Source of the DNA: Promethearchaeota archaeon
Lineage (GTDB): Archaea > Asgardarchaeota > Thorarchaeia > Thorarchaeales > Thorarchaeaceae
Length of the DNA: 16,051 bases
Reading direction: 5' to 3'
NCBI GenBank assembly: GCA_027031765.1
Contig: JALVPN010000069.1
Location: 1 to 16,051 of the forward strand
The position numbers and the translations under genes were made by a program. The notes under the pieces are model-generated. The model was not told the DNA's origin and did no database searches. It saw nothing but the letters and a program-made list of their open reading frames with translations. This document shows, in pieces, positions 21 to 12,522 of the stretch (position 1 is its first letter; every line of letters starts with the position of its first letter).

Positions 21-205
21 CTCGCAGAAGTTGATTTCAGATTGGGGGGATAGGAAGATGAGAATCACCGCCCCGAGCTCGCGTACGCGGCGTCCTCGCA
101 GAACTAGGTTTCAGACTGGGTGGACTGAAACAAGGGGTTCTCTGCAAGTCTGGGTGTGCGGTCGTTGTCGTTCTCGGGAGCATGTTTCACTTTGGAGGCC
201 GGAAG
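21..205 (+). CRISPR. Degenerate CRISPR array (end of an array or a mini-array): 37-nt repeats at 21-57 and 95-131, a very decayed third copy ending at 205, and 37-nt spacers
   Basis: 21-57 CTCGCAGAAGTTGATTTCAGATTGGGGGGATAGGAAG and 95-131 CTCGCAGAACTAGGTTTCAGACTGGGTGGACTGAAAC align without gaps at 28/37. The second copy ends in ACTGAAAC, a canonical crRNA 5'-handle type, and contains a GTTTCAG/CTGAAAC stem. A third remnant (CTCG...GTTTCA...TTGGAGG..GGAAG) ends at 205, keeping the 74-nt period (57, 131, 205). The array may extend left of the window. Confidence 0.72.
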
Positions 206-486
206 TGTACAGGCGCGTATGTCAGGGTCAGTCTTCTGATTTCCTACTCGGTGGCGGATGACTTATTACGTCAGTCATCTCGCTATTTTCGCAGATGGGC
301 CGCTGTGCTGTGTGGTGTCCCACTCTGCACGACGGGTCTGGGTGCTCACACACCCCGTATACACCGGACATGCAGGGAGGTGTAGTGGGGGGCCGTGTGC
401 TGTCATTTGTGGTGACACCGGCAAAGGGGATTCCAGTCATTTCCAGCGGGTGGCCTGACCGTGAGCGAAAAGGGGGTTGGCCGGCG

Positions 487-1995
487 ATGCACGATGGGTC
501 TGAGGGGTTTGAGTCCCGGTGGGAACAGCTGATGAGTGAAGGACGCTATTCCGAGGCCGGGCAGTTATACGAGGAGATGTTCCCGGTCGTTATCGAGCGT
601 GTCTGCAGGGAGTTCCGGGAGGGAGTGGTCACAGGTCCCTTGGTGGGCAGGTGCATACTTGTCCAGACTGTGGGCCTGTCCCCACTGCCACTCATCCTGG
701 TCATCCGGGCCCTTGAGCCCAAGTTCATCTACTTTGTACACACGGAACAGTCTTTGAGTTCGGTCGATGCCGTGACGCAGTACTTGGGGCTTGCCACTTC
801 CCGGTACCAGAAGGTGCCGGTGGACGGGACAGATGTCTACCAGGCCATCCGGAACATTGCGTCCCGGCTTGCAGAAGGTGGGGTGCCGGTTGTTGCAGAC
901 CTCACCGGTGGTACCAAGGTCATGTCGGTACAGCTTGCACTGTTCTCGGCGATGCGTGGTTACTCTCTGGTCTACGTCCGACACAGGACACGGCACCGCA
1001 ACATTGTGCCGGGTTCTGAGGCTGTGGTTGTGATTGAGAACCCATACGAGGTCTTCAGGCCCATTGAGTTCGGGAGAGCGCTGGAGGCAGCGAACAGCGG
1101 GGCGTTTGACAGGGCCTCCTCCGAGTTCGGGCGTCTTGAACGCATACTATCGGAGCCCGTATCTGTGCTGTGGGCCCGTGCACTGCGCCTGTACTGTGGG
1201 ATGCTGCGTGACTGGCACGAGTTCCACTATGAGGGGGCGGAGGAGTCTGCCAGTGCTCTTGAGGACCTTTTCCGGCAGTACCCGTTCCTGTCCTCTCTCA
1301 AGGAAACAGTCCAGGCGCAGGTCCATACGGTGAAACGTCTTGCGTCCACGGCTACAACGCCCTTGTTCGATGCGTTGAAAGACCCTGACACTGCCCGCCT
1401 CATGGTGCTGGACATCTATGCCAACGCGTTGCGCTGTGATGGACGAGGACGTGTTGCCGATGCCACTGTACGCTACTACCGTGCCATTGAGCTGATAGGC
1501 CAACACCTGCTTGCACTACGTGACATAGACACTGCTGCTGTGCGTTGGGAGTCGGTACCGGAGGACGCCATCGCACTGTTCCGCCGCATCGATGCCACGT
1601 TCAGGGGCCAGTCGTCGGAAGGCCCACTCCCGGAGAAGCTCGCAATGACCCAGGGGTACTCGCTCCTCGTGGCCCTCCGTGACAGTGTTGTCCTCCGTTT
1701 CCTTGCAACTATGATACACAAAGATGCGGTGGCTGGTGGTGATGATGTGCTCTCCAAGTTGGGGGGACACCTTGTGAAACGGCTCAGACGGGCGGCTGAG
1801 GCACGGAACAACCACATCCTCATCCATGGATGGACTACGTCGAGACATGGCCCAAAGGAGCACGAGAAGGTACGCAGACTGTCCCGCGAACTCATCATTG
1901 CGCTGTTCGAAGGGGACGGTGCCCGGGTGGATGAGATGCTCTCCGACCACATGTTCCCTGAGCTCTCCCTTGATACCTTGGGGCTTGCTGTCTGA
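487..1995 (+). CDS. CARF-HEPN cyclic-oligoadenylate-activated ribonuclease candidate, TIGR02710-like CRISPR-associated protein (~502 aa)
   Basis: CARF motifs TVGLSPLP and DLTGGTKVMS, then PGSE...NPY, a helical region with DATVRYYRAIELIGQ, and a HEPN R-x6-H motif RNNHILIHG (1804-1827). The ATG at 487 follows a purine-rich stretch; the ORF-track extension from 295 looks non-protein-like. Confidence 0.85.
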   Translation: MHDGSEGFESRWEQLMSEGRYSEAGQLYEEMFPVVIERVCREFREGVVTGPLVGRCILVQTVGLSPLPLILVIRALEPKFIYFVHTEQSLSSVDAVTQYLGLATSRYQKVPVDGTDVYQAIRNIASRLAEGGVPVVADLTGGTKVMSVQLALFSAMRGYSLVYVRHRTRHRNIVPGSEAVVVIENPYEVFRPIEFGRALEAANSGAFDRASSEFGRLERILSEPVSVLWARALRLYCGMLRDWHEFHYEGAEESASALEDLFRQYPFLSSLKETVQAQVHTVKRLASTATTPLFDALKDPDTARLMVLDIYANALRCDGRGRVADATVRYYRAIELIGQHLLALRDIDTAAVRWESVPEDAIALFRRIDATFRGQSSEGPLPEKLAMTQGYSLLVALRDSVVLRFLATMIHKDAVAGGDDVLSKLGGHLVKRLRRAAEARNNHILIHGWTTSRHGPKEHEKVRRLSRELIIALFEGDGARVDEMLSDHMFPELSLDTLGLAV

Positions 1996-2006
1996 CAGTC
2001 GTTCCA

Positions 2007-2036
2007 CCTAGCCAGTCTTGGCCAGGACTCTCTAGG
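2007..2036. terminator. Hairpin between convergent genes; possible terminator
   Basis: CCTAG(2007-2011)/CTAGG(2032-2036) encloses AGTCTT-GGCC-AGGACT (2014-2029). It lies in the gap between the CARF stop and the last cas7 stop. No clear U-tract. Confidence 0.3.
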
Positions 2037-2108
2037 CCACGCACCGGCTTCTTGCTGTCTGACGGTCGTCCCACTTGGGCCTTCTGCTGTGCTGTCACCG
2101 CACCCGTT

Positions 2109-2852
2109 TCAGCTGTTTCGGTCTTGGTGGTCTGTGAGCAGTGGCTCAAGTGCAGCAAAGGCCTCAGCAGGCATACACCCTTGGCAGACCTCTGGCTCTG
2201 CCATGCCAAGCAACTGTTCTGGTGTGCGGTACAGCTTGATGGTGGTGGTCCTGCAACGGAAGCGGCCCAGCCCGGCCGTTGTCCGTCCGCCCACTCCGAT
2301 GTGTCCCTGTGCGATTTCGTCGAGGACAAAGAAGAGGAGTCTCAGCACATGCGGTTCCATGATGTTCGTAATATGCAGTTCAAGCGTGGCGCTGGCACTG
2401 GGCTGTATGACCTCCTGTTTGAATGGGCCTGACTTGCCGTACGTCCGGGTCTTGGGGTCTATCGTCACATGGGCCCGTACCTCCGTCCTGCCGTCCTCAA
2501 AGAGAATGTCAGCTACCCGAACCGCTCCACGCAGTGCGACTGCACTCTCTCCGCCCACCTTGACGCCTCCAGTCCCGAACAGGACGTCAGACCATTTCAG
2601 GGCCACTCCGCCCTTGCCGATGTCAAAGCTGGGCGGTGTGAGGGCCAGCTGCTCAAGGCGCGAGAACTCCGACCTGAGTATTCCCTTAATCGATGCCCCC
2701 TTGACCAGTGGCAGTGGACTGCCCGTGCCCTGTCTTGCCCTGAGTACAGTTTCTCTGTCGGGGTCCGTACCGCCAACGCGCACTGCCGTGACGGCCTCAA
2801 GATTCATCTCCACTGCTATCAGTGAGTCCTTCCTGTCATAGCCGACCCTCAT
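2109..2852 (-). CDS. cas7: Cas7-group RAMP (Csm3-like), ~247 aa
   Basis: AVRVGG, PLVKGASIKGILRS, LFG, GAVRVAD, HVTIDPKT, and the G-loop VGGRTTAGLGRF. The ATG at 2852 overlaps the upstream stop (ATGA). Confidence 0.88.
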   Translation of the reverse strand: MRVGYDRKDSLIAVEMNLEAVTAVRVGGTDPDRETVLRARQGTGSPLPLVKGASIKGILRSEFSRLEQLALTPPSFDIGKGGVALKWSDVLFGTGGVKVGGESAVALRGAVRVADILFEDGRTEVRAHVTIDPKTRTYGKSGPFKQEVIQPSASATLELHITNIMEPHVLRLLFFVLDEIAQGHIGVGGRTTAGLGRFRCRTTTIKLYRTPEQLLGMAEPEVCQGCMPAEAFAALEPLLTDHQDRNS

Positions 2853-3973
2853 GTGTTGCACCTCCATAGGACCACTTGGTTGAGCTGGCTGTTCCGGAGC
2901 AACTCCTCTCCAATGCCTGTGAACTCGTAGCGCGCAATCTTCTCAGGCTCTGGCTTTCCTGCTGACTCTTCTGGTCTGTAGAAGAACACGCTACCTGGGA
3001 TGGCCGCTCTTATCATGGGCCGCTGCAGGCCTGTTGAGAGTGCCCACCCACTGACGGTCGTGGCCCGGCCAAAAGTGCGCTCAAGTCTGAGGCCGTCTAT
3101 GCGTTCCACATATGGTACCGACTCCCAGCCACTGTCGCCAAGCCTCACCTCAGCCACTGGCGACCTCGCAATCATTATGATGCCGCCAAAACGTTCCAGA
3201 TGGCACTCTACGAGGGGCACCAGCTCGTCGCACAGTCCATCTATCCCCTTGGGCTGTCCCACTTTCCTGAGCTGCATCAGCCCCCATCCACGTCCACGAC
3301 CCGCTCCGACCATGACCATCCTGTTCTCGTCGACCAGTCTGTCAAGGTACTGGCAGAGGTCCTCATCAATCACCACAGACGTCCTGAGGTGGCCTTCGAA
3401 CGTGCACGTCTCGTTGAAGAAGAGCACGCCCGTGACAGTAGAGCCTGTGCGGTCATCTATCTGGATGCCGGGCCTGAGTTCTTTGTGTGGCATGGTGAGT
3501 GGTTTCTTGCATGAGATGCAGACCGGCCTAGTGTAAGGGCGCCGGAAACACTCCTCGTCGTGTGTGTCACAGAACCTTGCGCCAGCGGTCGACCCATTGA
3601 TAATGATCTCCTCGGTGAGGTCGTAGGGCCGCCCATCTGTACAGACCTTGCACCCTGCCCATGTCAGCGGCGGGTGTGCCAGCTCGAGAGGGGAGTCGCA
3701 GTCGCACGCTGGGAGGGCACCCGTCACTTGCACGACTCCGGGGATGACCGACTGGGTAAAGTCACATGTGGCCCTGTCCTGACAGTTGATGCAGCGTCTG
3801 TTCTCACCGTATGGACAGAGCTCGCGGCGGATTGCCGATAGCAGGGCGCCACGCATCTTCTTGCCTGTCACATATCTCTCACTGAGATGTATGTTCCTGG
3901 CTGGCAACTGCTCCCGTAGTGCCGCTTCCGTGAGCGGCTCAAGGTACAGCTCGACCCTCACAGTCCTGCTCAC
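2849..3973 (-). CDS. csx10: Csx10-like two-RAMP subunit (Cas7-like plus Cas5-like), cysteine-rich, ~374 aa
   Basis: YVTGKKMRGALL, GIQIDDRTGST, an internal G-loop VGAGRGRGWG, and a C-terminal Cas5/Csx10-type GWALS..QRP...AAIPGSVFFY. The GTG at 3973 overlaps the upstream TGA (GTGA) and follows GAGGGAG. Confidence 0.72.
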   Translation of the reverse strand: MSRTVRVELYLEPLTEAALREQLPARNIHLSERYVTGKKMRGALLSAIRRELCPYGENRRCINCQDRATCDFTQSVIPGVVQVTGALPACDCDSPLELAHPPLTWAGCKVCTDGRPYDLTEEIIINGSTAGARFCDTHDEECFRRPYTRPVCISCKKPLTMPHKELRPGIQIDDRTGSTVTGVLFFNETCTFEGHLRTSVVIDEDLCQYLDRLVDENRMVMVGAGRGRGWGLMQLRKVGQPKGIDGLCDELVPLVECHLERFGGIIMIARSPVAEVRLGDSGWESVPYVERIDGLRLERTFGRATTVSGWALSTGLQRPMIRAAIPGSVFFYRPEESAGKPEPEKIARYEFTGIGEELLRNSQLNQVVLWRCNT

Positions 3974-4575
3974 AGGTCTCCCTCCTCGTTGTGTGTGCTG
4001 CCGTCTTCCATCTCGACCAGCACCCGCGCCCCGTGTCTTCCAAGACCTTCTCTTTTCAGATGTCGGAACACTATTCTCAACAGTCCCATCATGCCCTCCC
4101 ACTCATCGTTGTTCTCAACGGCACTCTCGTCCACGAGTATCCTGAACCTGAAGGTGGTGCCAGGTGGGACCATCTCGTGAAAGAAGAGGGCCCCTCTTGC
4201 CACAGATCGCGTCTGTGCTGACAGTCTTACACCGGGGATGATGTCTGTCTTGACCTCCCCGTCGCACAGTGCACTCGTGACTACCACAGTACCTGCGTGG
4301 TCGGCTGTCCCAAGCAGGTGGGCGATGAGCGCATCATCACTTGGCCAGCGCTTGAGGAACGCGTCGAGCTGAGAGGGAACGGTGGCGTTTCTCAGGAGTG
4401 GCAACACCAGCCGCAGGATCCAGCGCATGCGTCCCCTGATTGTGCTGCTCGGGATGAACGGTCGGCCCCTGAACCGCTGCACCAGTATCGTGCGCGTACC
4501 CCCGAGCCCCATCTTGCCTGTCCCAATGTGCATCAGGTCAACAGTTGTAAGCTTACAGCGGATCTCTCTCATCAT
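3970..4575 (-). CDS. cas7: Cas7-group RAMP (Csm3-like, probably non-catalytic), 201 aa
   Basis: LMHIGTG, PFIPSSTIRGRMR, LLGT, GVRLSAQTRSVARGALFFHEMVPPGTTF, and a short G-loop GLGRHG. ATGA overlap with the cas10 stop. Confidence 0.87.
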   Translation of the reverse strand: MMREIRCKLTTVDLMHIGTGKMGLGGTRTILVQRFRGRPFIPSSTIRGRMRWILRLVLPLLRNATVPSQLDAFLKRWPSDDALIAHLLGTADHAGTVVVTSALCDGEVKTDIIPGVRLSAQTRSVARGALFFHEMVPPGTTFRFRILVDESAVENNDEWEGMMGLLRIVFRHLKREGLGRHGARVLVEMEDGSTHNEEGDL

Positions 4576-7097
4576 CGTCCCCCCATAAGGATACGTGCGA
4601 GGACCGCGGCATCGAGCACCCCGACGCGTCGTTCCGAGTCGCCAAGGACAAGGTGGCCTATTGCACGGTAGACCTCGCTATCGCGCTTCTTAATCCCGGC
4701 CCGGTTCATCATGTATATGCAGTAGGTGGCTGCAAGGTGCCTGGCATCGTCTGTGACGGATGTATCACACAGCTGCCAGGCATCAGCAATCTGTTCGATG
4801 ACTTCGGAGGCTGCTTTCCAGAATGCCTCGACGGGCGGCTCTTCCTTGTCCGCATCTGGTTCAGTGTCCTTCGTTCTTACTGCAACGTAGTACTCAGTGG
4901 CATAGCGGACCAGGGCCTCGGATGGTTCCTTCGGGTCCTCCAACATGTGTTTGAACAGCAGGTGTTGTTCTCCATCAAGGACGAGGGGGCGCAGCGACAG
5001 ATGGGCACTCCGCCACCGCTCATGGATGGACGCTATCTCTTCGGGCCCTCCCGGCAGTGCCTTCAGTATCTCGTAGTCCACAACTACTTGGGCCTCCTCC
5101 AGACTCGTGCGGCTCACGGTCTTGCAGTGGTCCAAGAGGGCCTCTGCTGCTTCCAGCACTGGGCGGATTGTTTCTTTCGGGTCGAATGCGACCACACTCA
5201 CAGAGAACCCGAGTGCGTAGCCCATCCCCTCCCTGAACTTGTGGGCAATACGCAGGGCCAGTGGCACGGCAAAGGCTGACGGGGCAAGGAGCAGCAGGTC
5301 GTCCCCACCAGCGTACAGGGCACCGAGCTCCAACCTCAGTGACAGCTCCTCCGCGCTCTCCTCCCAATCTTTCCACCCGCGTTCTTGCAGGTACCGTTCG
5401 AACCTGTCGACGAGCCACTGGTACGAGTCCCGTATTGCCTCGTCAAGGACACGCGTGAGCAAGATGTTCTTCTCGACAAGTTCGGACATTGAACGGAGAT
5501 TCGACATGAACCTACCTGCCAGGTTGGCATCGCCCTTCAACAGTGCGATATCTGCACGTGGCTCTTCTTCGTCAGTCTCGCGACCGAGGGCTTCAGGGTC
5601 CTCACCGGCAATGAACTCGAGGACGTACTTGCTCATAGTGTCCCAACCAAGCCCGGTCACCTCTTCCCCACCGTTCTTGCGGTAGGTGCTGGCGAAGGAC
5701 TCGTCGTAACCAGTCCTGTGGAGCATCTCACAGTCCTGACAGTAGTACTGCTCAGTGTCACCCATCTTGAACTTCTTTGATGCTGCATACGTGCGGCAGG
5801 AGTCGCATCGCATCTCTATTCCCAGACCAATAGGAGTGGGAGTGACCTCCAACAGCTCATTCTTTGCAAAGGTCACGGTTTCTCGCGTCTGGTTGAGCGC
5901 ATCGATGAACAGTTCGGGCCGTTCCAGTGATAGTCTGCCCGTCCCGGTCACTACCCGCAGGCGTGTTGTGATCTTGCTGAATGCCGAACGGATGGCACTG
6001 CATACTTCGTCTTCATACCGGCTACCGACCACGAGGACCATATTGCCCCCGCCGGACGCAACTACAGTTTCGAGCGGGAGTCCCATGTCTATCAGTACAC
6101 TGTACAATGACGGGAGTCCACGTCCAAGCAAGACCTCATGGTCTTTCATGAACCCGTCAATGAGGAGCGAAGCCCCCTTGAGCTGTGAGAGGCGGTCTGT
6201 ATTGCGTATGAACGGCTGGATTCCCGAGACGTCCGCGACTACTACGCTGGGTGCCTGTGTATCTGGTGTGTCAGTACTCTTGACAGGGCTCTGTTGCCGC
6301 CCCAAGAACGCCCTGACCACCCTGTCCATGTCCTGCGTCGTCATGCCCGCCAGGGCGTCGTCGTCATCCGCCCTGTCCTTGGGCCAGCTGAGCTCTTCCA
6401 TCACCACCCCTGTGAGTTGCCCGCGGACTGACCTGTAGACAGTGACAAACTCAATCGCCCACTCAATACGCTGGTGTTCGTCGGTCTTCTCCGTGCGCAG
6501 TATGGCCGAGATCTCATCCCAGAGGTTCTCCGTGACAAGGCCAGACAGGAGCTCCTTCCCGTAGTGCTCTGCACGACTGGGGTCGTACTCGTGTCTATCA
6601 ATACGACCGAGACCATGCAGCATGGCCGCCCAACGTAACACAGAGAGGTGACGCACCCGTTCCTCCTCATGTCCGTGCACCTGAGAGTCATAGTCTATGA
6701 CGCAGACTGCTGAGGCCAGCATCTGCGTCGTCCAGAGCCCGGAGAGGTTCAGCACAGGGCGTGGGTCAACTGGTAGCTGGAACATATCGCGTACCTTGCT
6801 GCGCTCTCCAGCCAATAGCCTCTCCGTCTGCTTCCTAGTCCCATACAGCCGACGAATGGTAGCAACAGCAGCTCCCAGGTCTGCCTCCGACAGGGAACTG
6901 CGCAGTACCAACACCAAGAGGTCACAGAGCTTCCACAGCTCCTCGTAGTTGCTGCACTTGGCCCCTACAACCTCCCGCATCACCTTGTTGACTGCCTGCA
7001 CTCCCGTCTGGAGAATAGATTCCACGTCGTCTATGACTCCAACATGGGTCATCCCGCCATCGGCTCGACGGGGGACATACCAAGCCCTATGTACCAT
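4572..7097 (-). CDS. cas10: Cas10 large subunit: Palm GGDD intact, HD domain degenerate (841 aa; alternative start 7052)
   Basis: PVDPRP (PADTRP-like), VVADVSGIQPFIR, SGGGN, a CDSC...YCQDC zinc finger, LLKGDANLAG, and LYAGGDDLLL (GGDD at 5298-5309). The HD position reads LHGLGR. GAGGAGG lies upstream of the ATG at 7097. Confidence 0.95.
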   Translation of the reverse strand: MVHRAWYVPRRADGGMTHVGVIDDVESILQTGVQAVNKVMREVVGAKCSNYEELWKLCDLLVLVLRSSLSEADLGAAVATIRRLYGTRKQTERLLAGERSKVRDMFQLPVDPRPVLNLSGLWTTQMLASAVCVIDYDSQVHGHEEERVRHLSVLRWAAMLHGLGRIDRHEYDPSRAEHYGKELLSGLVTENLWDEISAILRTEKTDEHQRIEWAIEFVTVYRSVRGQLTGVVMEELSWPKDRADDDDALAGMTTQDMDRVVRAFLGRQQSPVKSTDTPDTQAPSVVVADVSGIQPFIRNTDRLSQLKGASLLIDGFMKDHEVLLGRGLPSLYSVLIDMGLPLETVVASGGGNMVLVVGSRYEDEVCSAIRSAFSKITTRLRVVTGTGRLSLERPELFIDALNQTRETVTFAKNELLEVTPTPIGLGIEMRCDSCRTYAASKKFKMGDTEQYYCQDCEMLHRTGYDESFASTYRKNGGEEVTGLGWDTMSKYVLEFIAGEDPEALGRETDEEEPRADIALLKGDANLAGRFMSNLRSMSELVEKNILLTRVLDEAIRDSYQWLVDRFERYLQERGWKDWEESAEELSLRLELGALYAGGDDLLLLAPSAFAVPLALRIAHKFREGMGYALGFSVSVVAFDPKETIRPVLEAAEALLDHCKTVSRTSLEEAQVVVDYEILKALPGGPEEIASIHERWRSAHLSLRPLVLDGEQHLLFKHMLEDPKEPSEALVRYATEYYVAVRTKDTEPDADKEEPPVEAFWKAASEVIEQIADAWQLCDTSVTDDARHLAATYCIYMMNRAGIKKRDSEVYRAIGHLVLGDSERRVGVLDAAVLARILMGGR

Positions 7098-7407
7098 CTC
7101 GTGCTGCCTCCTCTAGAAGGTCTTTCAAACGGACTGTCCCGGGCACTGGGTGCTCGAGCCCAAGGGCCTGCGCAATCTCTGCCCGTGCCCGCGGGTGCAG
7201 GAACGGGTTGTCCTTTCCGTCTACTATCACCGGATCCCTCTCAATCTGCTGACCCCCACTTTTTTCCCAGGGGATAATCTTGAACACGCCGTCCTCAACG
7301 ACCACTCTGAGCCCGCGTCTTGCGTCGACATCCTCTTCTGTAGGCCGATGTATTGAGATGGCCAGCTCGTCGGTCAGCAGAATATAGAACAGTGTCCTCC
7401 CCGTCAT
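7087..7407 (-). CDS. Small uncharacterised protein inside the cas operon (106 aa)
   Basis: Fills the gap between the cas7 fusion and cas10 exactly. It has an ATGA overlap at its start and an 11-nt overlap with the cas10 start. No family recognised. Confidence 0.75.
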   Translation of the reverse strand: MTGRTLFYILLTDELAISIHRPTEEDVDARRGLRVVVEDGVFKIIPWEKSGGQQIERDPVIVDGKDNPFLHPRARAEIAQALGLEHPVPGTVRLKDLLEEAARDGT

Positions 7408-9302
7408 TTTCCTGTCCCTCCAGCAGCAGCAGCCCCTTCTAGTCGTCGCTTGAGTCGGGTTCCATAGTAGTCCTGTGCGACCTCTATCTTCTCCGTCATG
7501 AACTTGACCACGCTACGATCACTTCTCTTGTACTCATGGTTGTTGTCGGTGCACACTCGAGTGACGGCGACCCTTGCCCTTCCGAAGTGTATGGGGTTCT
7601 CTCCCATGTCCCGGTAGTGGTGTCTTCCGATACGAATCCCTCCCCTCTCCTTGACTCCCATCGCAAGGAACAGCAGGCCCAACCGGACATCGTCTAGGTT
7701 CCTATACCTCACTAAACCACTGAAGGCTGTCGTATTGCCTCCAAGCTGTCTTACCACCTCTGCACTGAAGACCCATTCTCCCACTTTCACATCACTTGCT
7801 TTCACCTCTGTGTTCGTGTCCGGCAGTGCATCGTCGACCTCCACCAGTGACCGCAGCCCTCCCGCACGGTCACTCTTTGCACCGTGGCCGCCCTGTGCCC
7901 TGACGGTGAGGCCAAAGATGTCACAGACCACGCAAGGGTTGTTAGTGCTCCGACACTCGGGCCGGCGGAGGATTTTCCCATCAGTCCCATACAACTCCCT
8001 GTGATGGTGACTCTCAGTCCCCTTCTGTGCTCTCCCCTGTATGACGAAGCACGAGTCTATCTCTCCATTCTCCTCTCTGAACAGGAGTTCCATCCGTGAC
8101 CTGAATATGCCCTTCAAGGTAGAACCCGGTATTACATACCGACGGTCAAGGGTACGTCGCTTTGAACGGACTGCTTGGTATGCGAACCGTTCATATGCGT
8201 GCATATCAAGTTCCATGTCCTTTGCAAGGGTTTCCGCGTCTTCAAAGGAAATACCCTTTGCAATGTGTTCCATGAGAGTCCCCTCCTTGAAGGGGACGGT
8301 CTTCTCCCCCGAGCCTACGTGAATATAGTAACCATCAATGGGCACTACGGCGAAGTGTATGACCCCACTCCTGCTTGGGTCTGTGAACTCACGTGGTGTC
8401 GGGCGGACTGTCCGGAGTTTCAGATTCCCGTCACTGACAGGTGCTCCGTGCTGGATGCTCTCTACTGTAGGTCTCTCGGTGTCCCGTCCTTCCATATATG
8501 CGTTCCATGTCTTGCTTGCCCATTCCCGTATCTGCATGGTGAGGTCACCCCCGGTGGTCGGCATTCCCGTCCCGTGTCCACTGTCAGCTGACCCCCCACT
8601 GTCTATCAGTGACGGCCGGTACTCTTCGGCCCCCGTGACCTTCACTCTGACCTTTCCAAACCCCACTGATGTCCGTCCACCAATGCGCAACCGCCCGTCG
8701 TTGCAGGCCAGCAGTGAGTCAAGCAGGAGGGCAAGCTCGTGAACGGCGAGTCCTCTGCATACCAGTCGGGTCTTGAACAGGCTCCCAGGCACGACGTACT
8801 CGGCCGTGAAGAGGGCTCCCTTCGCAACACTCCCAGCCAACCGGTCAACGCCGGTTCCCGGTCTGACCGAAGTGAATACGTGTGTTGGCCCTGCTGGGTA
8901 CGCGTCTTGGAACCGCACCCTGCCCCGATATCCCGGGCTCCCAAAAATACGACACGCAATACAGAACGTCGACAATATCTCCCGGACTCTGTTGTCGTTG
9001 CCTTTCTTCTGGGCGTCTTGGATTGCGCGTGAATTCTCTTTGTTGCCCCCACAGCTCTCTCTATTGTTAAGTATGTCACAGACTTGGATGCCGAGTCCCC
9101 GCAGTCGCTGCTCAACGAACGCCCTCAGTACACCCTTGATTGATGAGCCGGGGATGTATGGGGTGCTGTCCCCGTCCACTGAAATGCGGAGCAGGGGGAG
9201 GTCATATTCAGGATTCTGTTTCGCATCTCCGACCTTCAGCGGCGACTTGACTCTGAGCTCAAGGTCGATGACCTGTACGACATCGGGTGTATGCACTGCC
9301 AC
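7404..9302 (-). CDS. cas7: Cas7-Cas7 fusion protein (Csm3-like plus Csm5-like RAMP), 632 aa
   Basis: Domain 1: SPLKVG..YDLPLLR, PYIPGSSIKGVLR, C..C/CIAC, IGGRTSVGFG. Domain 2: YIHVGSG, YVIPGSTLKGIFRS, C..C/CVVCDIFG, IGRHHYR...FGRARV. A G/S/T-rich linker joins them with no stop codon. GTG start after GGAGGGG. Confidence 0.9.
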   Translation of the reverse strand: MAVHTPDVVQVIDLELRVKSPLKVGDAKQNPEYDLPLLRISVDGDSTPYIPGSSIKGVLRAFVEQRLRGLGIQVCDILNNRESCGGNKENSRAIQDAQKKGNDNRVREILSTFCIACRIFGSPGYRGRVRFQDAYPAGPTHVFTSVRPGTGVDRLAGSVAKGALFTAEYVVPGSLFKTRLVCRGLAVHELALLLDSLLACNDGRLRIGGRTSVGFGKVRVKVTGAEEYRPSLIDSGGSADSGHGTGMPTTGGDLTMQIREWASKTWNAYMEGRDTERPTVESIQHGAPVSDGNLKLRTVRPTPREFTDPSRSGVIHFAVVPIDGYYIHVGSGEKTVPFKEGTLMEHIAKGISFEDAETLAKDMELDMHAYERFAYQAVRSKRRTLDRRYVIPGSTLKGIFRSRMELLFREENGEIDSCFVIQGRAQKGTESHHHRELYGTDGKILRRPECRSTNNPCVVCDIFGLTVRAQGGHGAKSDRAGGLRSLVEVDDALPDTNTEVKASDVKVGEWVFSAEVVRQLGGNTTAFSGLVRYRNLDDVRLGLLFLAMGVKERGGIRIGRHHYRDMGENPIHFGRARVAVTRVCTDNNHEYKRSDRSVVKFMTEKIEVAQDYYGTRLKRRLEGAAAAGGTGK

Positions 9303-9313
9303 TCTGTCCCCTC

Positions 9314-9997
9314 CTACTCTATCACGACCTCATCTGTGATGTCCCTGTACTCGAGTCTGAGTCCACGCACATCGTCCGCAGTCAGAATGGCCACTCTGGT
9401 GATGTCGAGTGAAACAACGCCCAGTCCTGAAGTCGTCTTGCCACCAATCGCAATCCGGGAGTTCTTCAGTTCGCTGAGGACAAGCCGCATGGCCTTTGCC
9501 TCTAGAGTGTCATCCCTGATGTCGATGTTCTCCATTATCAGCTTGAACGAGAAACGTGTACCCGGTGCTACTGTTTCGATGTCGTACTTTTTCCTTGGGC
9601 TTGCTGCGCCCGTCGTACGGTCTATCGCGACACCCGGCTTTGTATGGACTGCTACGGGCTCCAACGGGTGGCAGTCTACAAACGCCACATGTCCACGTAC
9701 TCTCGTATCCTTGCCAGCGCTGCCAAACAGGTACTGGACTACCCTCTCTCCACCACTGACACCGGACAAGAGGGGTTCAAGGTGCGACCTGACCACTCCC
9801 TTCACACTGGAACCTGGGATGTATGGTACTTCCTCATTGCCAATCCTCACCCGGATGACTGGGTTGTCGGTAGACCCCCGTGTGGTAGCGGCTCCGATGT
9901 GAACCTGTGTCACCGCCCTCAGGACACCTTCCACAACTGTACGACACTTGAAGACATCGAAGTCTCCAGGAGCAATTTTGCTGTCGTCCTCATTCAT
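9314..9997 (-). CDS. csm3: Csm3-type Cas7 backbone RNase, 227 aa
   Basis: DFDVF..RTVVEG, VHIG, the catalytic-Asp motif TDNPVIR, PYIPGSSVKGVVRS, LFGS, PGVAIDRTTG, IGGKTTSGLG. Confidence 0.92.
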   Translation of the reverse strand: MNEDDSKIAPGDFDVFKCRTVVEGVLRAVTQVHIGAATTRGSTDNPVIRVRIGNEEVPYIPGSSVKGVVRSHLEPLLSGVSGGERVVQYLFGSAGKDTRVRGHVAFVDCHPLEPVAVHTKPGVAIDRTTGAASPRKKYDIETVAPGTRFSFKLIMENIDIRDDTLEAKAMRLVLSELKNSRIAIGGKTTSGLGVVSLDITRVAILTADDVRGLRLEYRDITDEVVIE

Positions 9998-10057
9998 AGT
10001 TCATCCACTCCATGACCCGTCATGTGTGTAGGAACGCCCCCTGCAGTCACCGCTCGG

Positions 10058-10516
10058 TCATCTCGGCCCTTTCCTCGGTCGTCTGTCCTGGCCACGGGAG
10101 TCCCCGAATACCAACCTTGCCAATTGGTCAAATGCGTCTTCTCTGTTGCTTATCCTTCGCATGTCCTCGGGTCTCAGTTTCTCGGCGCCCTTGTAGAGGC
10201 GCTTCAGGTGCGTGAGATACATGCGGGCAAGTGCAGTCGCGTCGGCCGTGTCGAGCTTGTACAGATCTGCTAGGTCTTCGTACACCTGCTTGGAGAACTC
10301 TCTAGGCAATACCTCACGCTGTCCACTCTGGTAGACAAGATGTTCCTGTACTAGCAGTATTGCGTCCTTTCCCTTTCCCCTTGAGAACACTTCAAGGAGC
10401 TGGTTGACCTGTGATGAGGCGCCGCTTCCACGTTTGGCCACTCCAAGTTTGGCCACTGCAAATGCCGCATAGTTCAGGAGGTCGAGCTGACTGGGTCTGG
10501 GATTTCCCTCGGTCAT
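10058..10516 (-). CDS. cas11: Cas11/Csm2-like small subunit, ~152 aa (alternative start 10594)
   Basis: Small, apparently all-helical protein and first gene of the operon. SSQVNQLL, LVYQSGQR and ARMYLTHLKRLY resemble type III small-subunit patterns. The call rests on position and general pattern. Confidence 0.68.
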   Translation of the reverse strand: MTEGNPRPSQLDLLNYAAFAVAKLGVAKRGSGASSQVNQLLEVFSRGKGKDAILLVQEHLVYQSGQREVLPREFSKQVYEDLADLYKLDTADATALARMYLTHLKRLYKGAEKLRPEDMRRISNREDAFDQLARLVFGDSRGQDRRPRKGPR

Positions 10517-10830
10517 TGTTACGTAACTCTCCAGTGCACATGTGCAGACCGCGGCAATGTGACTCTTGACACAACGACTTGGGTGCGCTGACATCTAGCA
10601 CGCCAGTCCTCGGTCGGCCGCGCAGGAGTCCATTGCAGACCTCTGGGGTCACAGTATCTGTGTGTATGGTCTGAGGATAGGGCCCCCTCCTGCCACACTG
10701 TACGTACATGCATCACGTTGCACCCATCTGCTCTTCCAGTATGGAGGGCCCGGCGTGAAGATGTATGTAGCTGTTCCATTTCATTGTGGTGTCACATGCC
10801 ACATATCTGACTATACCTCTTCGAATGCCA

Positions 10831-10840
10831 CTATATAAAG
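10831..10840. promoter_or_regulatory. Archaeal TATA-box-like element (TATATAAA on +, TTTATATA on -)
   Basis: CTATATAAAG is a conspicuous AT-rich element in the GC-rich divergent intergenic region. Direction cannot be determined. Confidence 0.45.
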
Positions 10841-11380
10841 AGATGTCTGGCCACCACTGTCCGACACGGGCGTCGCAGGGGCCTCCAGAGGCTGTTCTGG
10901 GCGGTTTCTGTGAGGCGTCCCGTCTGTCCCCAGGAAATGGCTGGCGCACTTGGCGATGTTGGGTAACGAGAATAAACTCGACCCCCACTGTATGTGTGTC
11001 CTGTGTACCGTAGCACCTCCTGCCATGACACAATGTGTACCTCTCATTTTGCAGATTGTAGCAACCGTACCGGCTGTGGCACTGTGTCGTGGGTTCCATT
11101 GTGGTGGTTTCCGGCAGCAATGTCCACACGCGTGCCGCCGTTTGATGGGAGTGCCCGTCATCTCCAGCTGTATGCCTGTTCGACTGAGAGTTTATTAGAC
11201 GGGACTGCCCAAGACGCGGACTCGTGCGGTGATAACGACACTGAGAGAAAAGTCACAGGCGGTGTGTCCGTCTGACCTGGTGTGTAGATATGCATAGCCA
11301 AGACATGGGGGTGATGTGATGGTGTCCTGTCCACCAAACGACCCAATGCCCATACCGCCATGGTAGAAGCCATGCGCCTG

Positions 11381-11599
11381 ACAGAGGGCGGAGTGGCTGG
11401 GAATCCCGACCGAGTCGGGACTATGGCTCTCAATGGTGCAGCAGTGGTGTCCGCGACATTTCCGTTGCGGATACCCTTCCTTCTCTGTGGCCCACCAGTG
11501 ACAATCGCAGCACCCGCACCGAATTCCCGCTTGCTGGATTGTCGTGGGCTGTGTGCCCCCATCGGAGCGCACAGTCCCTGCGGCAGGACACAGTGGGTC
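11381..11599 (+). ncRNA. Putative structured non-coding RNA or long structured 5' UTR, family unknown
   Basis: Six nested, mutually compatible helices of 7-12 bp cover much of the segment. Their 8 G-U pairs all work on the + strand only (details in findings). Confidence 0.45.
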
Positions 11600-11675
11600 G
11601 TTTTCTGTGGCGTGTTGTTGGCCGTGCTTGACGATGGCCTCAAAGTCCATCCGGTTGGGTGTGGTAGATACCTGT

Positions 11676-12326
11676 ATGAGGTGGAGCTATAGGGATCGTA
11701 CTGAGGCCGGTGAGGTACTTGCGGACGAGCTTGTACGTGGCGGTGTTGGTCGTCCATTGCTCGTCCTTGCTGTACCGAATGGGGGTGTCAAGGTAGCGGC
11801 CCCCATGGCGCGTGCCCTGGGTGCGGACCTCGACATTGTTGTTGTCCGCAAGTTGCAGGTCCCGCACAACCCTGAGGCGGGGTTCGGGGCACTGACCTCT
11901 CTTGGGGCTGTCTTCCTGAACCAGCGGCTTGTAGAGTACCTGGGGCTGTCGCCGGACGTGGTGGAGCGGGTGAGGGCACGGACAGCGGCACAGGTCGAGG
12001 CGCGGGTGATGCGTTACCGCAGCGTTCTTGCTGAGAAGAGTCCTGCGGGGAAGCATGTGGTGCTGGTCGATGACGGTCTTGCGTCCGGGTACACGATGCT
12101 GGCTGCGGTCGAGTCTGTCCGAGAGAAGGGCCCGCTGAGCATCACTGTGGCTGCGCCCACTGCTTCCGAGAGTGCTGTCCGGCTGTTGCGTCCGCGCGTC
12201 GACCGGCTGGTGTGTCCGCGTGTCACGGGTGGGCCGGTGTTTGCTGTCGCCGACGCATACAGGGACTGGTACGATGTACCGGACGACGAGGTGGAGGCCA
12301 TCCTCCGTGCCTACGGTGCAGTGTGA
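11676..12326 (+). CDS. Phosphoribosyltransferase-family protein (COG1926-like), 216 aa
   Basis: YRDRTEAGEVLA, VLAVPNGGV, VVRKLQVPHNPEAGFGA, the PRPP-binding motif VVLVDDGLASGYT, and YRDWYDVPDDEV. ATG at 11676. Confidence 0.9.
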   Translation: MRWSYRDRTEAGEVLADELVRGGVGRPLLVLAVPNGGVKVAAPMARALGADLDIVVVRKLQVPHNPEAGFGALTSLGAVFLNQRLVEYLGLSPDVVERVRARTAAQVEARVMRYRSVLAEKSPAGKHVVLVDDGLASGYTMLAAVESVREKGPLSITVAAPTASESAVRLLRPRVDRLVCPRVTGGPVFAVADAYRDWYDVPDDEVEAILRAYGAV

Positions 12327-12378
12327 GGATAGTATCAACCCCAGTCCTCGTCTGATTGGGGCTACGGTGCAGTGTGAG
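12311..12378 (+). repeat. 17-bp perfect direct repeat CTACGGTGCAGTGTGAG (12311-12327 and 12362-12378)
   Basis: Read directly from the sequence. The first copy covers the last codons and stop of the PRTase gene; the copies are 51 bp apart. Confidence 0.95.
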
Positions 12379-12498
12379 TGGCAATGTGCCTGCCCTGTAG
12401 TCTCAACCCCACTTCTAGTCTGGGCGGGATTGGAATGCGTATAGCCGAGTGGAGCTAGCACTGGAGTCGTTTCAACCCCACTTCTAGTCTGGGCGGGA
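12332..12498. CRISPR. CRISPR mini-array: three 30-nt repeats (possibly 37 nt) and two spacers of 38 and 39 nt
   Basis: 12400-12429 GTCTCAACCCCACTTCTAGTCTGGGCGGGA and 12469-12498 GTTTCAACCCCACTTCTAGTCTGGGCGGGA match at 29/30. 12332-12361 GTATCAACCCCAGTCCTCGTCTGATTGGGG matches at 22/30. Periods are 68 and 69. The minus-strand reading ends GTGGGGTTGAAAC. Orientation is ambiguous. Confidence 0.75.
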
Positions 12499-12522
12499 CT
12501 CGTGCACTGCTGATGGGACGGG

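Follow-up and report, generated by a model that had tools for sequence, protein, structure and literature searches.

Contig JALVPN010000069.1 (C69) of assembly GCA_027031765.1, the genome of an uncultured Thor-type Asgard archaeon (2.95 Mb in 229 contigs, 95% complete), carries a type III CRISPR-Cas locus; the contig, analysed over its entire 16,051 nucleotides (nt), is called the window. As judged from sequence, the locus very probably represents a complete III-D effector module, built on the architecture of SsoCsm, the III-D1 complex of Saccharolobus solfataricus (8bmw), and guided by an adjacent CRISPR array. Three derived features characterize it: the HD domain of Cas10 is inactivated but retained and two Cas7 subunits, Cas7d and Cas7e, are fused, both traits being specific to a Thor clade, while a small protein encoded before cas10 is shared with scattered archaeal relatives.

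The effector operon and its subunits

The operon consists of eight close-packed genes on the minus strand, running from position 10516 to position 2109 and coding, in this series, for Cas11, a Cas7, a double Cas7, a 106-amino acid (aa) protein, Cas10, a further Cas7, a Cas5-type RAMP and a last Cas7, so that five Cas7 domains and one Cas5 domain are present (Table 1). With the gene starts taken from an independent gene call on identical DNA, five consecutive junctions overlap, by 4 nt between the fusion and the small gene, by 11 nt between the latter and cas10, and by 4 nt each at the cas10/cas7, cas7/cas5 and cas5/cas7 junctions; the small-protein gene is translationally coupled on both sides. 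No match to cas1, cas2, cas4 or cas6 families was found among the scanned open reading frames (ORFs) of at least 80 aa in the window. A preliminary description of this DNA had read the same gene order, the five Cas7 domains, the five consecutive overlaps and the lack of cas1/2/4/6 in the 16 kb; family scans and the gene call bear out all of these, and its view of the system as III-D-like and archaeal is supported as well.

In SsoCsm, chains A-E correspond to Cas11 (sso1424), F/G to Cas7c (sso1425), H/I to Cas7d (sso1426), J to the Cas7e cap (sso1427), K to Cas10 (sso1428), L to Cas7a (sso1430), M to Cas5 (sso1431) and N to Cas7b (sso1432) (PMC9945777). The window operon is colinear with sso1424-1432 except for one fusion and one small gene: both share the order cas11-cas7c-cas7d-cas7e-cas10-cas7a-cas5-cas7b, each has five different Cas7-type proteins, and for the window Cas10, Cas7c, Cas7d, Cas7e and Cas11 the best or top match among solved structures is the SsoCsm counterpart. 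Because of this colinearity, and since the small gene also occurs in relatives with an intact HD domain, the locus does not hold a private subunit set, as had been proposed in the preliminary description.

The 227-aa Cas7 matches 8bmw_G at 6.5e-14, and both this protein and the fusion exceed the cut-off of TIGR02581, the Csx7 equivalog (108.05 bits). In the fusion, the N-terminal half (residues ~12-226) matches 8bmw_H (sso1426) at 5.6e-25 and the C-terminal half (residues ~296-564) matches 8bmw_J (sso1427) at 2.7e-6, while the double-RAMP model TIGR03986 stays at 87 bits, below its cut-off of 161. Two genes encode Cas7d (275 aa) and Cas7e (314 aa) in the HD-intact relative L025, whose gene order is otherwise the same; fusion residues 20-226 are 37% identical to this Cas7d (5e-41) and residues 296-564 are 32% identical to this Cas7e (3e-30). 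Since its halves match separate genes in L025, the fusion is regarded as a derived trait of the Thor clade. The catalytic Asp column of the Cas7 alignment (A5) is present in the Cas7c-like and Cas7d-like proteins, is missing from the Cas7a-like protein of every clade member and is unconserved in the Cas7b-like protein.

The Cas5-type protein matches Cas_Cmr3 (PF09700) with 32 bits, above the cut-off of 21; thus, of the earlier assignment of this gene as csx10, its nature as a Cas5-type RAMP stands, whereas the Csx10 label goes back to a single match far below its cut-off, taken up again below. The same protein contains a Cys-rich insertion, in which Cys 108, 111, 135 and 152 are invariant in the clade and in L025 (alignment A8); the four invariant residues suggest a predicted zinc site. 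The first gene of the operon belongs to no sequence family of Pfam or NCBIfam, and PDB sequence searches with Cas5 and with the Cas11 profile gave nothing meaningful. Its structural model is a helical bundle with a predicted local distance difference test (pLDDT) score of 85, and the leading fold matches are Cas11/Csm2 chains, namely 8bmw_A/B/E (template modelling (TM) score by target 0.69-0.73, root-mean-square deviation 3.4-3.7 A) and 6xn3_C; on the strength of this model, the gene product appears Cas11-like.

Table 1. Features of the window, with strand and the basis or extent of each assignment
Feature	Position	Strand	Remarks
Cas11 small subunit	10058-10516	-	152 aa from conserved Met; longest ORF to 10594; fold match only
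Cas7 (Csx7/Csm3 type), SsoCsm Cas7c position (sso1425)	9314-9997	-	227 aa; TIGR02581 113.8 bits
Cas7d::Cas7e fusion	7404-9302	-	632 aa; two RAMP stretches; TIGR02581 140.3 bits
Small protein, 106 aa	7087-7407	-	alignments and model; no match in any library searched
Cas10	4572-7097	-	841 aa; Pfam palm2 PF22335 1.5e-10; Csm1 and Cmr2 models
Cas7, SsoCsm Cas7a position (sso1430)	3970-4575	-	RAMPs 3.5e-15
Cas5-group RAMP, SsoCsm Cas5 position (sso1431)	2849-3973	-	374 aa, GTG start; ORF scanned 2849-4102
Cas7, SsoCsm Cas7b position (sso1432)	2109-2852	-	RAMPs 1.4e-15, Csx7 2e-12; ORF scanned 2109-2867
Csm6-type CARF-HEPN RNase	397-1995	+	convergent with operon; longest ORF from 295
Two degenerate terminal CRISPR repeats (21-57, 95-131)	21-131	+	array runs on past window position 1
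Two 35-nt direct repeats	1984-2085	.	67 nt apart; situated where csm6 and the last cas7 converge
Three decayed repeats of a second repeat family (31-mer)	12332-12499	+	probably a remnant; no demonstrated link to the III-D system

Cas10, the small protein and Csm6

Cas10 contains an HD-type N-terminal domain, a palm 1 with the motif 'DVSGIQ', a Cys4 zinc finger and a palm 2 with GGDD. Its best solved relative is 8bmw_K, the III-D Cas10 (phmmer E 6e-19, residues 285-660), a III-A Cas10 being the next one at 0.004. A word-index search of 5.8 billion proteins with this query retrieved only the query itself, and an initial scan with this one sequence against the genome contigs gave no match. Exhaustive HMMER searches found six relatives at 33-38% identity, five of them full-length and one of 687 aa, beyond which the matches start at E 1e-45 with at most 30% identity. 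In a tree of 142 Cas10 relatives, the clade, taken for the tree and for motif counts as six full-length proteins (the window one and five relatives), forms one monophyletic unit (support 1.0) with a long branch, nested in a group of 22 members (support 0.99) that includes the HD-intact L025.

The eight-gene order recurs in the five readable relatives, three of which show all of it and two, on shorter contigs, a part of it, with a cas11-like protein of 133-143 aa, Cas7 of 221-227 aa, double Cas7 of 604-632 aa, small protein of 98-106 aa, Cas10 of 831-862 aa, Cas7 of 203-206 aa, Cas5 of 370-389 aa and Cas7 of 235-249 aa. All clade members with a taxonomic placement fall in the Thor-type Asgard family of the window genome; in 400 genomes of the phylum, clade-level matches are confined to this family, where three of the 85 other genomes, from three different genera, are positive. 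The distant Cas10 relatives (22-29% identity) belong for the most part to Caldarchaeales, Brockarchaeota, Methanomethylicota, Desulfurococcaceae and other Thermoproteota; those with a name are mostly of the TACK group, next to single Thermococci and metagenome-assembled genomes (MAGs) labelled 'bacterium'. The metagenome that yielded the window contains a second operon of this type, L019 (ENA ERZ23491057 scaffold_4346); as the two Cas10 proteins share just 38% identity, one sample contained two different carriers of the clade.

At the HD position, where 130 of the 142 relatives have 'HD(I/L)GK', the window Cas10 reads 'LHGLGR', and two more His motifs are lost too. The corresponding residues in the six clade members are HG, YI, YG, YF, YG and YV; in addition, the clade has neither the downstream 'HH' motif nor the Asp, and four of its six members have another residue in place of the upstream His. 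Among the 142 relatives, the dyad is lost only in the clade and in a few others. The ~280-residue N-terminal domain is still there in the clade, with an invariant P-x-D-x-R motif. As read from these motifs, the HD nuclease is dead, as the preliminary description had recognized, and its loss is clade-specific within a family that normally keeps it; the companion remark that Cas10 of such systems is usually HD-less is wrong for this family, more than 90% of the relatives having retained the domain. Conversely, every clade member has both GGDD and the palm-1 motif D-x-S-G-I-Q, and GGDD is shared by 133 of the 142 relatives.

The gene convergent with the operon codes for a Csm6-type protein with a Pfam HEPN match (PF09670, 4e-14; 53 bits against a cut-off of 27) and weak matches to Csa3_N and CARF_Card1, the latter at 21 bits, just under its cut-off. 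Both the CARF motif 'DLTGGTKVMS' and the HEPN Rx6H motif 'RNNHILIHG' are present, and the protein is 34% identical to the product of the gene in the same position of locus L021. A convergent CARF gene lies downstream of the operon in three loci: the window, L021 (Csm6 in both) and L020 (weak match to a Card1 endonuclease). CARF proteins are sensors of cyclic oligoadenylate (cOA). Because the cyclase motifs are intact and a CARF-HEPN Csm6 is adjacent, an RNA sensor that would signal through cOA, as first suggested in the preliminary description, is the best reading; the motifs support target-RNA-activated cOA synthesis feeding a CARF-HEPN RNase, and a Cas10 DNase arm is not expected, since the HD nuclease is dead.

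The small protein encoded before cas10 is found in every clade locus and carries a near-invariant His in an 'LHPR' motif; in its model (pLDDT 83), two helices follow a sheet of five strands. Copies are likewise present in the HD-intact relatives L025 (115 aa, 'IHPR' motif) and L024, and a hidden Markov model of these sequences detects the L032/L068 copies too. ORFs of 91-110 aa stand directly before cas10 in loci of Thermococci, Thermoproteota, a Korarchaeota-like MAG, Methanomethylicia and Geothermarchaeum, and their profile matches the Thor small-protein profile with 94.5% probability and E 7e-8. A family of ~100 aa just upstream of III-D1-type cas10 genes, lacking any database match, is seen in L033, L038, L040, L044, L059 and L032, across several archaeal phyla; in other loci of the same Cas10 family, a Cas7e-like gene immediately precedes cas10 in place of the ~100-aa ORF.

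Members of the small-protein family gave only noise against NCBIfam and Pfam at relaxed thresholds, and their profiles have no detectable similarity to PDB sequences, 8s9t included. Fold searches (Foldseek on PDB, a wide VIA-align search, VIA-align on the Foldseek top 1000, and ESM Atlas by shape) found nothing above background, the best values, Z 5.7 and TM below 0.5, coming from generic pieces of beta-meander, and a language-model search of the Atlas returned no usable match. A predicted complex of Cas10 and the small protein scored 0.26 (mark 0.32), which speaks neither for nor against binding. Csx19, frequent but not universal in subtype III-D, is a small beta-rich protein that is placed between Cas5 and Cas10 in the Synechocystis III-Dv complex and is needed for assembly there (PMC11026444). 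Functionally it is the obvious analogue; an identification with Csx19 was considered and is unsupported, only the place beside cas10 and the beta-rich fold resembling the published description. By its sequence profile, the protein is a member of an uncharacterised archaeal family, and its most likely role is that of an additional structural or regulatory subunit.

A more ambitious proposal, probably too far-reaching, is that the small protein represents an unrecognised core subunit of archaeal III-D1-type effectors, in the Thor clade as well as in scattered TACK, Thermococci and Korarchaeota lineages, acting as an analogue of Csx19 or as a regulator of the cyclase, and that the Thor clade in addition records an independent step of Cas7 fusion, fixing complex length and cap, towards fused type III effectors.

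CRISPR array, proposed mechanism and alternative readings

At window position 1, the contig breaks off inside an array. In another assembly of the same metagenome, the same sequence is found as L006 (16,720 nt), which extends 669 nt beyond window position 1 into a regular array with a 37-nt repeat and 37-39-nt spacers, at least ten repeats being present before the contig ends. On the plus strand, the repeat is a 37-mer ending in ATTGAAAG, and these 8 nt (ATTGAAAG) are the classical handle of CRISPR RNA (crRNA). Mismatches to the repeat consensus climb towards the window, from 0-1 to 2, 3, 2, 5 and 6, with 9 in the repeat at 95-131; such decay towards the trailer end is usual in live arrays. 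Given this gradient and the array in L006, the repeats at 21-131 are the trailer of a real array. Thus, the locus has its own cognate array, and its array-less look in the window is an assembly artefact due to the contig end. Arrays of the same repeat family flank homologous operons, with 25 and 37 repeats in L021 and 6 and 34 in L020. Nine spacers compared with the genome of the window had no match besides the array, so no self-targeting was seen there.

A search of the genome for cas6, cas1 and arrays, as envisaged in the preliminary description, finds, besides the array adjoining the locus, two copies each of cas1, cas4 and cas6 on contig C139. Here, an I-D-like module comprises a partial cas1, cas4, csc2, the cas3 helicase, a PF10040-type cas6 and csa1, and a type I-A/B-like module comprises cas6, cas7, cas5, cas3, cas4 and cas1; a III-B cmr operon follows, then an array at the contig end. 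This 32-kb contig (loci L074 and L075) is a CRISPR supercluster, and, with a further RAMP cluster on contig C6, the genome carries three type III effector modules (C139, C6 and C69). The PF10040-type Cas6 of C139 is 39% identical (1e-71) to the Cas6 encoded directly upstream of the L020 operon and is a plausible candidate for crRNA processing. For archaeal type III modules, SsoCsm included, it is normal to rely in trans on the Cas6 and the adaptation genes of type I systems in the same genome. The preliminary description had named, as what would speak against its view, Cas10 nested in a described III-D clade with the same gene set, next to a full array and cas1/2/6; about half of this picture is found, with a described III-D gene set and an adjacent full array, and with cas1/2/6 not adjacent, such genes lying on another contig.

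From these elements, a working scheme can be proposed. The adjacent array of 37-nt repeats would supply the guides, and a Cas6 from elsewhere in the genome would process them, leaving the 8-nt handle, which Cas5 would bind; the backbone would be made of Cas7a, Cas7b, at least one copy of Cas7c and a single Cas7d::Cas7e fusion, which would end and cap the filament, while copies of Cas11 would form the minor filament. Binding of a complementary transcript would switch on the Cas10 cyclase, and the resulting cOA would activate the neighbouring Csm6 RNase; Cas7c and Cas7d, in which the catalytic Asp is retained, may cut the bound target RNA, whereas Cas7a lacks this residue. Adaptation would be provided in trans by the type I modules on C139. 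The fused Cas7d and cap would fix one Cas7d per complex, and with Cas7a, Cas7b and two copies of Cas7c there would be six steps of 6 nt (36 nt), in agreement with spacers of 37-39 nt. Gene content, colinearity, motifs, the array and the cas genes in trans are observed directly, whereas the stoichiometry, the identity of the signal, the pattern of cleavage and what the small protein does are inferred.

Some points weigh against the III-D1 placement and against this scheme. The placement is founded on best solved-structure matches, profile matches and synteny, not on a reference phylogeny of all subtypes; no sequence match to the SsoCsm counterparts reached significance for Cas7a, Cas7b and Cas5, which are taken as orthologous by position only, and the Csx10 model TIGR02674 scores just 35.4 bits against a cut-off of 177, on the C-terminal 60 residues only. 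The array lies on the strand opposite to the operon, differently from L021, and is visible at its trailer side only, its leader end being beyond the contig end; moreover, three spacers searched as exact 25-mers in IMG/VR had no match, so no spacer target was found. All readings of expression and activity are drawn from sequence and models.

Other explanations were weighed against the array-guided III-D module. With only decayed arrays nearby, the preliminary description envisaged guides in trans or a non-adaptive role, which would make the locus a stand-alone effector that borrows crRNAs or serves in regulation. Inside the window there are indeed only degenerate repeats and no cas1/2/4/6, and the two inspected homologous loci with arrays, L020 and L021, have no recognised adaptation genes within 10 kb; however, a regular array begins just past window position 1, arrays of the same family (25, 37 and 34 repeats) flank the homologous operons, and sharing Cas6 and Cas1 with type I systems is the archaeal norm, for which this genome has both. 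A guide-less or non-adaptive role is not indicated, because of the adjacent array, the same-family arrays at homologues and the cas1, cas4 and cas6 genes of the genome, and we consider it very unlikely. A locus in decay, reduced to a non-functional remnant, would agree with the loss of the HD motifs, with the degenerate repeats at 21-131, 1984-2085 and 12332-12499 and with the missing adaptation genes; yet eight intact ORFs with conserved 4-nt overlaps, the retention of GGDD, palm 1, the zinc finger, the Cas7 Asp and the Csm6 motifs, and the persistence of the architecture across members only 33-38% identical all contradict it, and the repeats decay progressively in one direction, just as they do at the trailer of a live array, so that this explanation is highly improbable.

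Equally hard to credit is a third one, in which the Cas10 palm makes a messenger other than cOA, such as SAM-AMP, and Csm6 is not the main output. The identity of the messenger is unreadable from sequence, and SAM-AMP is reported for III-D2 (PMC13294483); the linked effectors are, however, CARF proteins, namely Csm6 in the window and in L021 and the weakly matching Card1 endonuclease in L020, and neither the window nor any inspected locus showed a CorA-type gene. The preferred reading thus remains an array-guided III-D1-type module signalling, by prediction, through cOA.

Other features of the window touch this system less directly. The 31-mer repeat family represented at 12332-12499 forms full arrays at the ends of contigs C63 and C139. 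In the window, these repeats come straight after a phosphoribosyltransferase gene (region 12313-12499), whose last 17 nt (ctacggtgcagtgtgag) recur after the first repeat; because of this recurrence, part of the mini-array resembles a tandem duplication and not spacer uptake. The direct repeats at 1984-2085 have no convincing similarity to either repeat family and are possibly decayed repeats or duplicates of a terminator region. Upstream of the operon, about 1 kb (10595-11627) has no called gene, Rfam match or second copy in the genome, and is an unusually long gap for such a compact genome; an Rfam search of the whole window found no RNA family.

In principle, the locus offers little that is new, III-D systems, HD-less Cas10, Cas7 fusions and Cas6/Cas1 acting in trans being already known. 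It indicates that the eight-subunit SsoCsm architecture is conserved far beyond Sulfolobales, it provides a natural Cas7d::Cas7e fusion, probably independent within the III-D1 architecture, that could clarify complex length and capping, and it draws attention to an uncharacterised family of small proteins linked with cas10 in several archaeal lineages. A further lesson is that a locus can look array-less when its contig ends inside an array.

Comparison with known systems

Subtypes III-G, III-H, III-I and III-C, in which the Cas10 cyclase is inactivated or lost and CARF effectors are absent (PMC12669027), were considered and rejected, since GGDD and palm 1 are intact in the window Cas10 and a CARF-HEPN gene is adjacent. 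A III-D system had already been reported in an Asgard archaeon (PMC9246712).

The Synechocystis III-Dv/III-D2 complex (8s9t, PMC11026444) shares with the window the III-D lineage, a double-Cas7 protein (Cas7-2x), nearby Csm6-type accessory genes and a small beta-rich extra subunit, Csx19, which is a core part of the Synechocystis complex. Conversely, its Cas7-Cas5-Cas11 fusion and its Cas7-insertion subunit are missing from the window operon; a III-D2/III-Dv architecture was rejected, as Cas5, Cas11 and all but two of the Cas7 domains are encoded by separate genes. The window fusion is probably independent of Cas7-2x, since the fused pair corresponds to two adjacent genes of the SsoCsm type.

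The HD-intact sister loci of uncultured archaea, such as L025 (ENA ERZ23499107 scaffold_117), have the same gene order, including the small gene before cas10; differently from the window, L025 has separate Cas7d and Cas7e, an intact HD..HH..D signature and adjacent cas6, cas4 and csa1.

SsoCsm is the closest model by architecture. Besides the gene order and the solved matches described above, cas6 and adaptation genes are missing from both loci, and Cas7b, which occupies a non-cleaving position in SsoCsm (PMC9945777), has an unconserved Asp column in the window. The differences are that in the window Cas7d and Cas7e form one polypeptide and a 106-aa gene lies between the fusion and cas10, that the HD motifs of its Cas10 are lost, the two Cas10 proteins being only distantly related, and that Cas7a, which cleaves in SsoCsm, is without the catalytic Asp; finally, the host of SsoCsm is a crenarchaeon, whereas that of the window is an Asgard archaeon.

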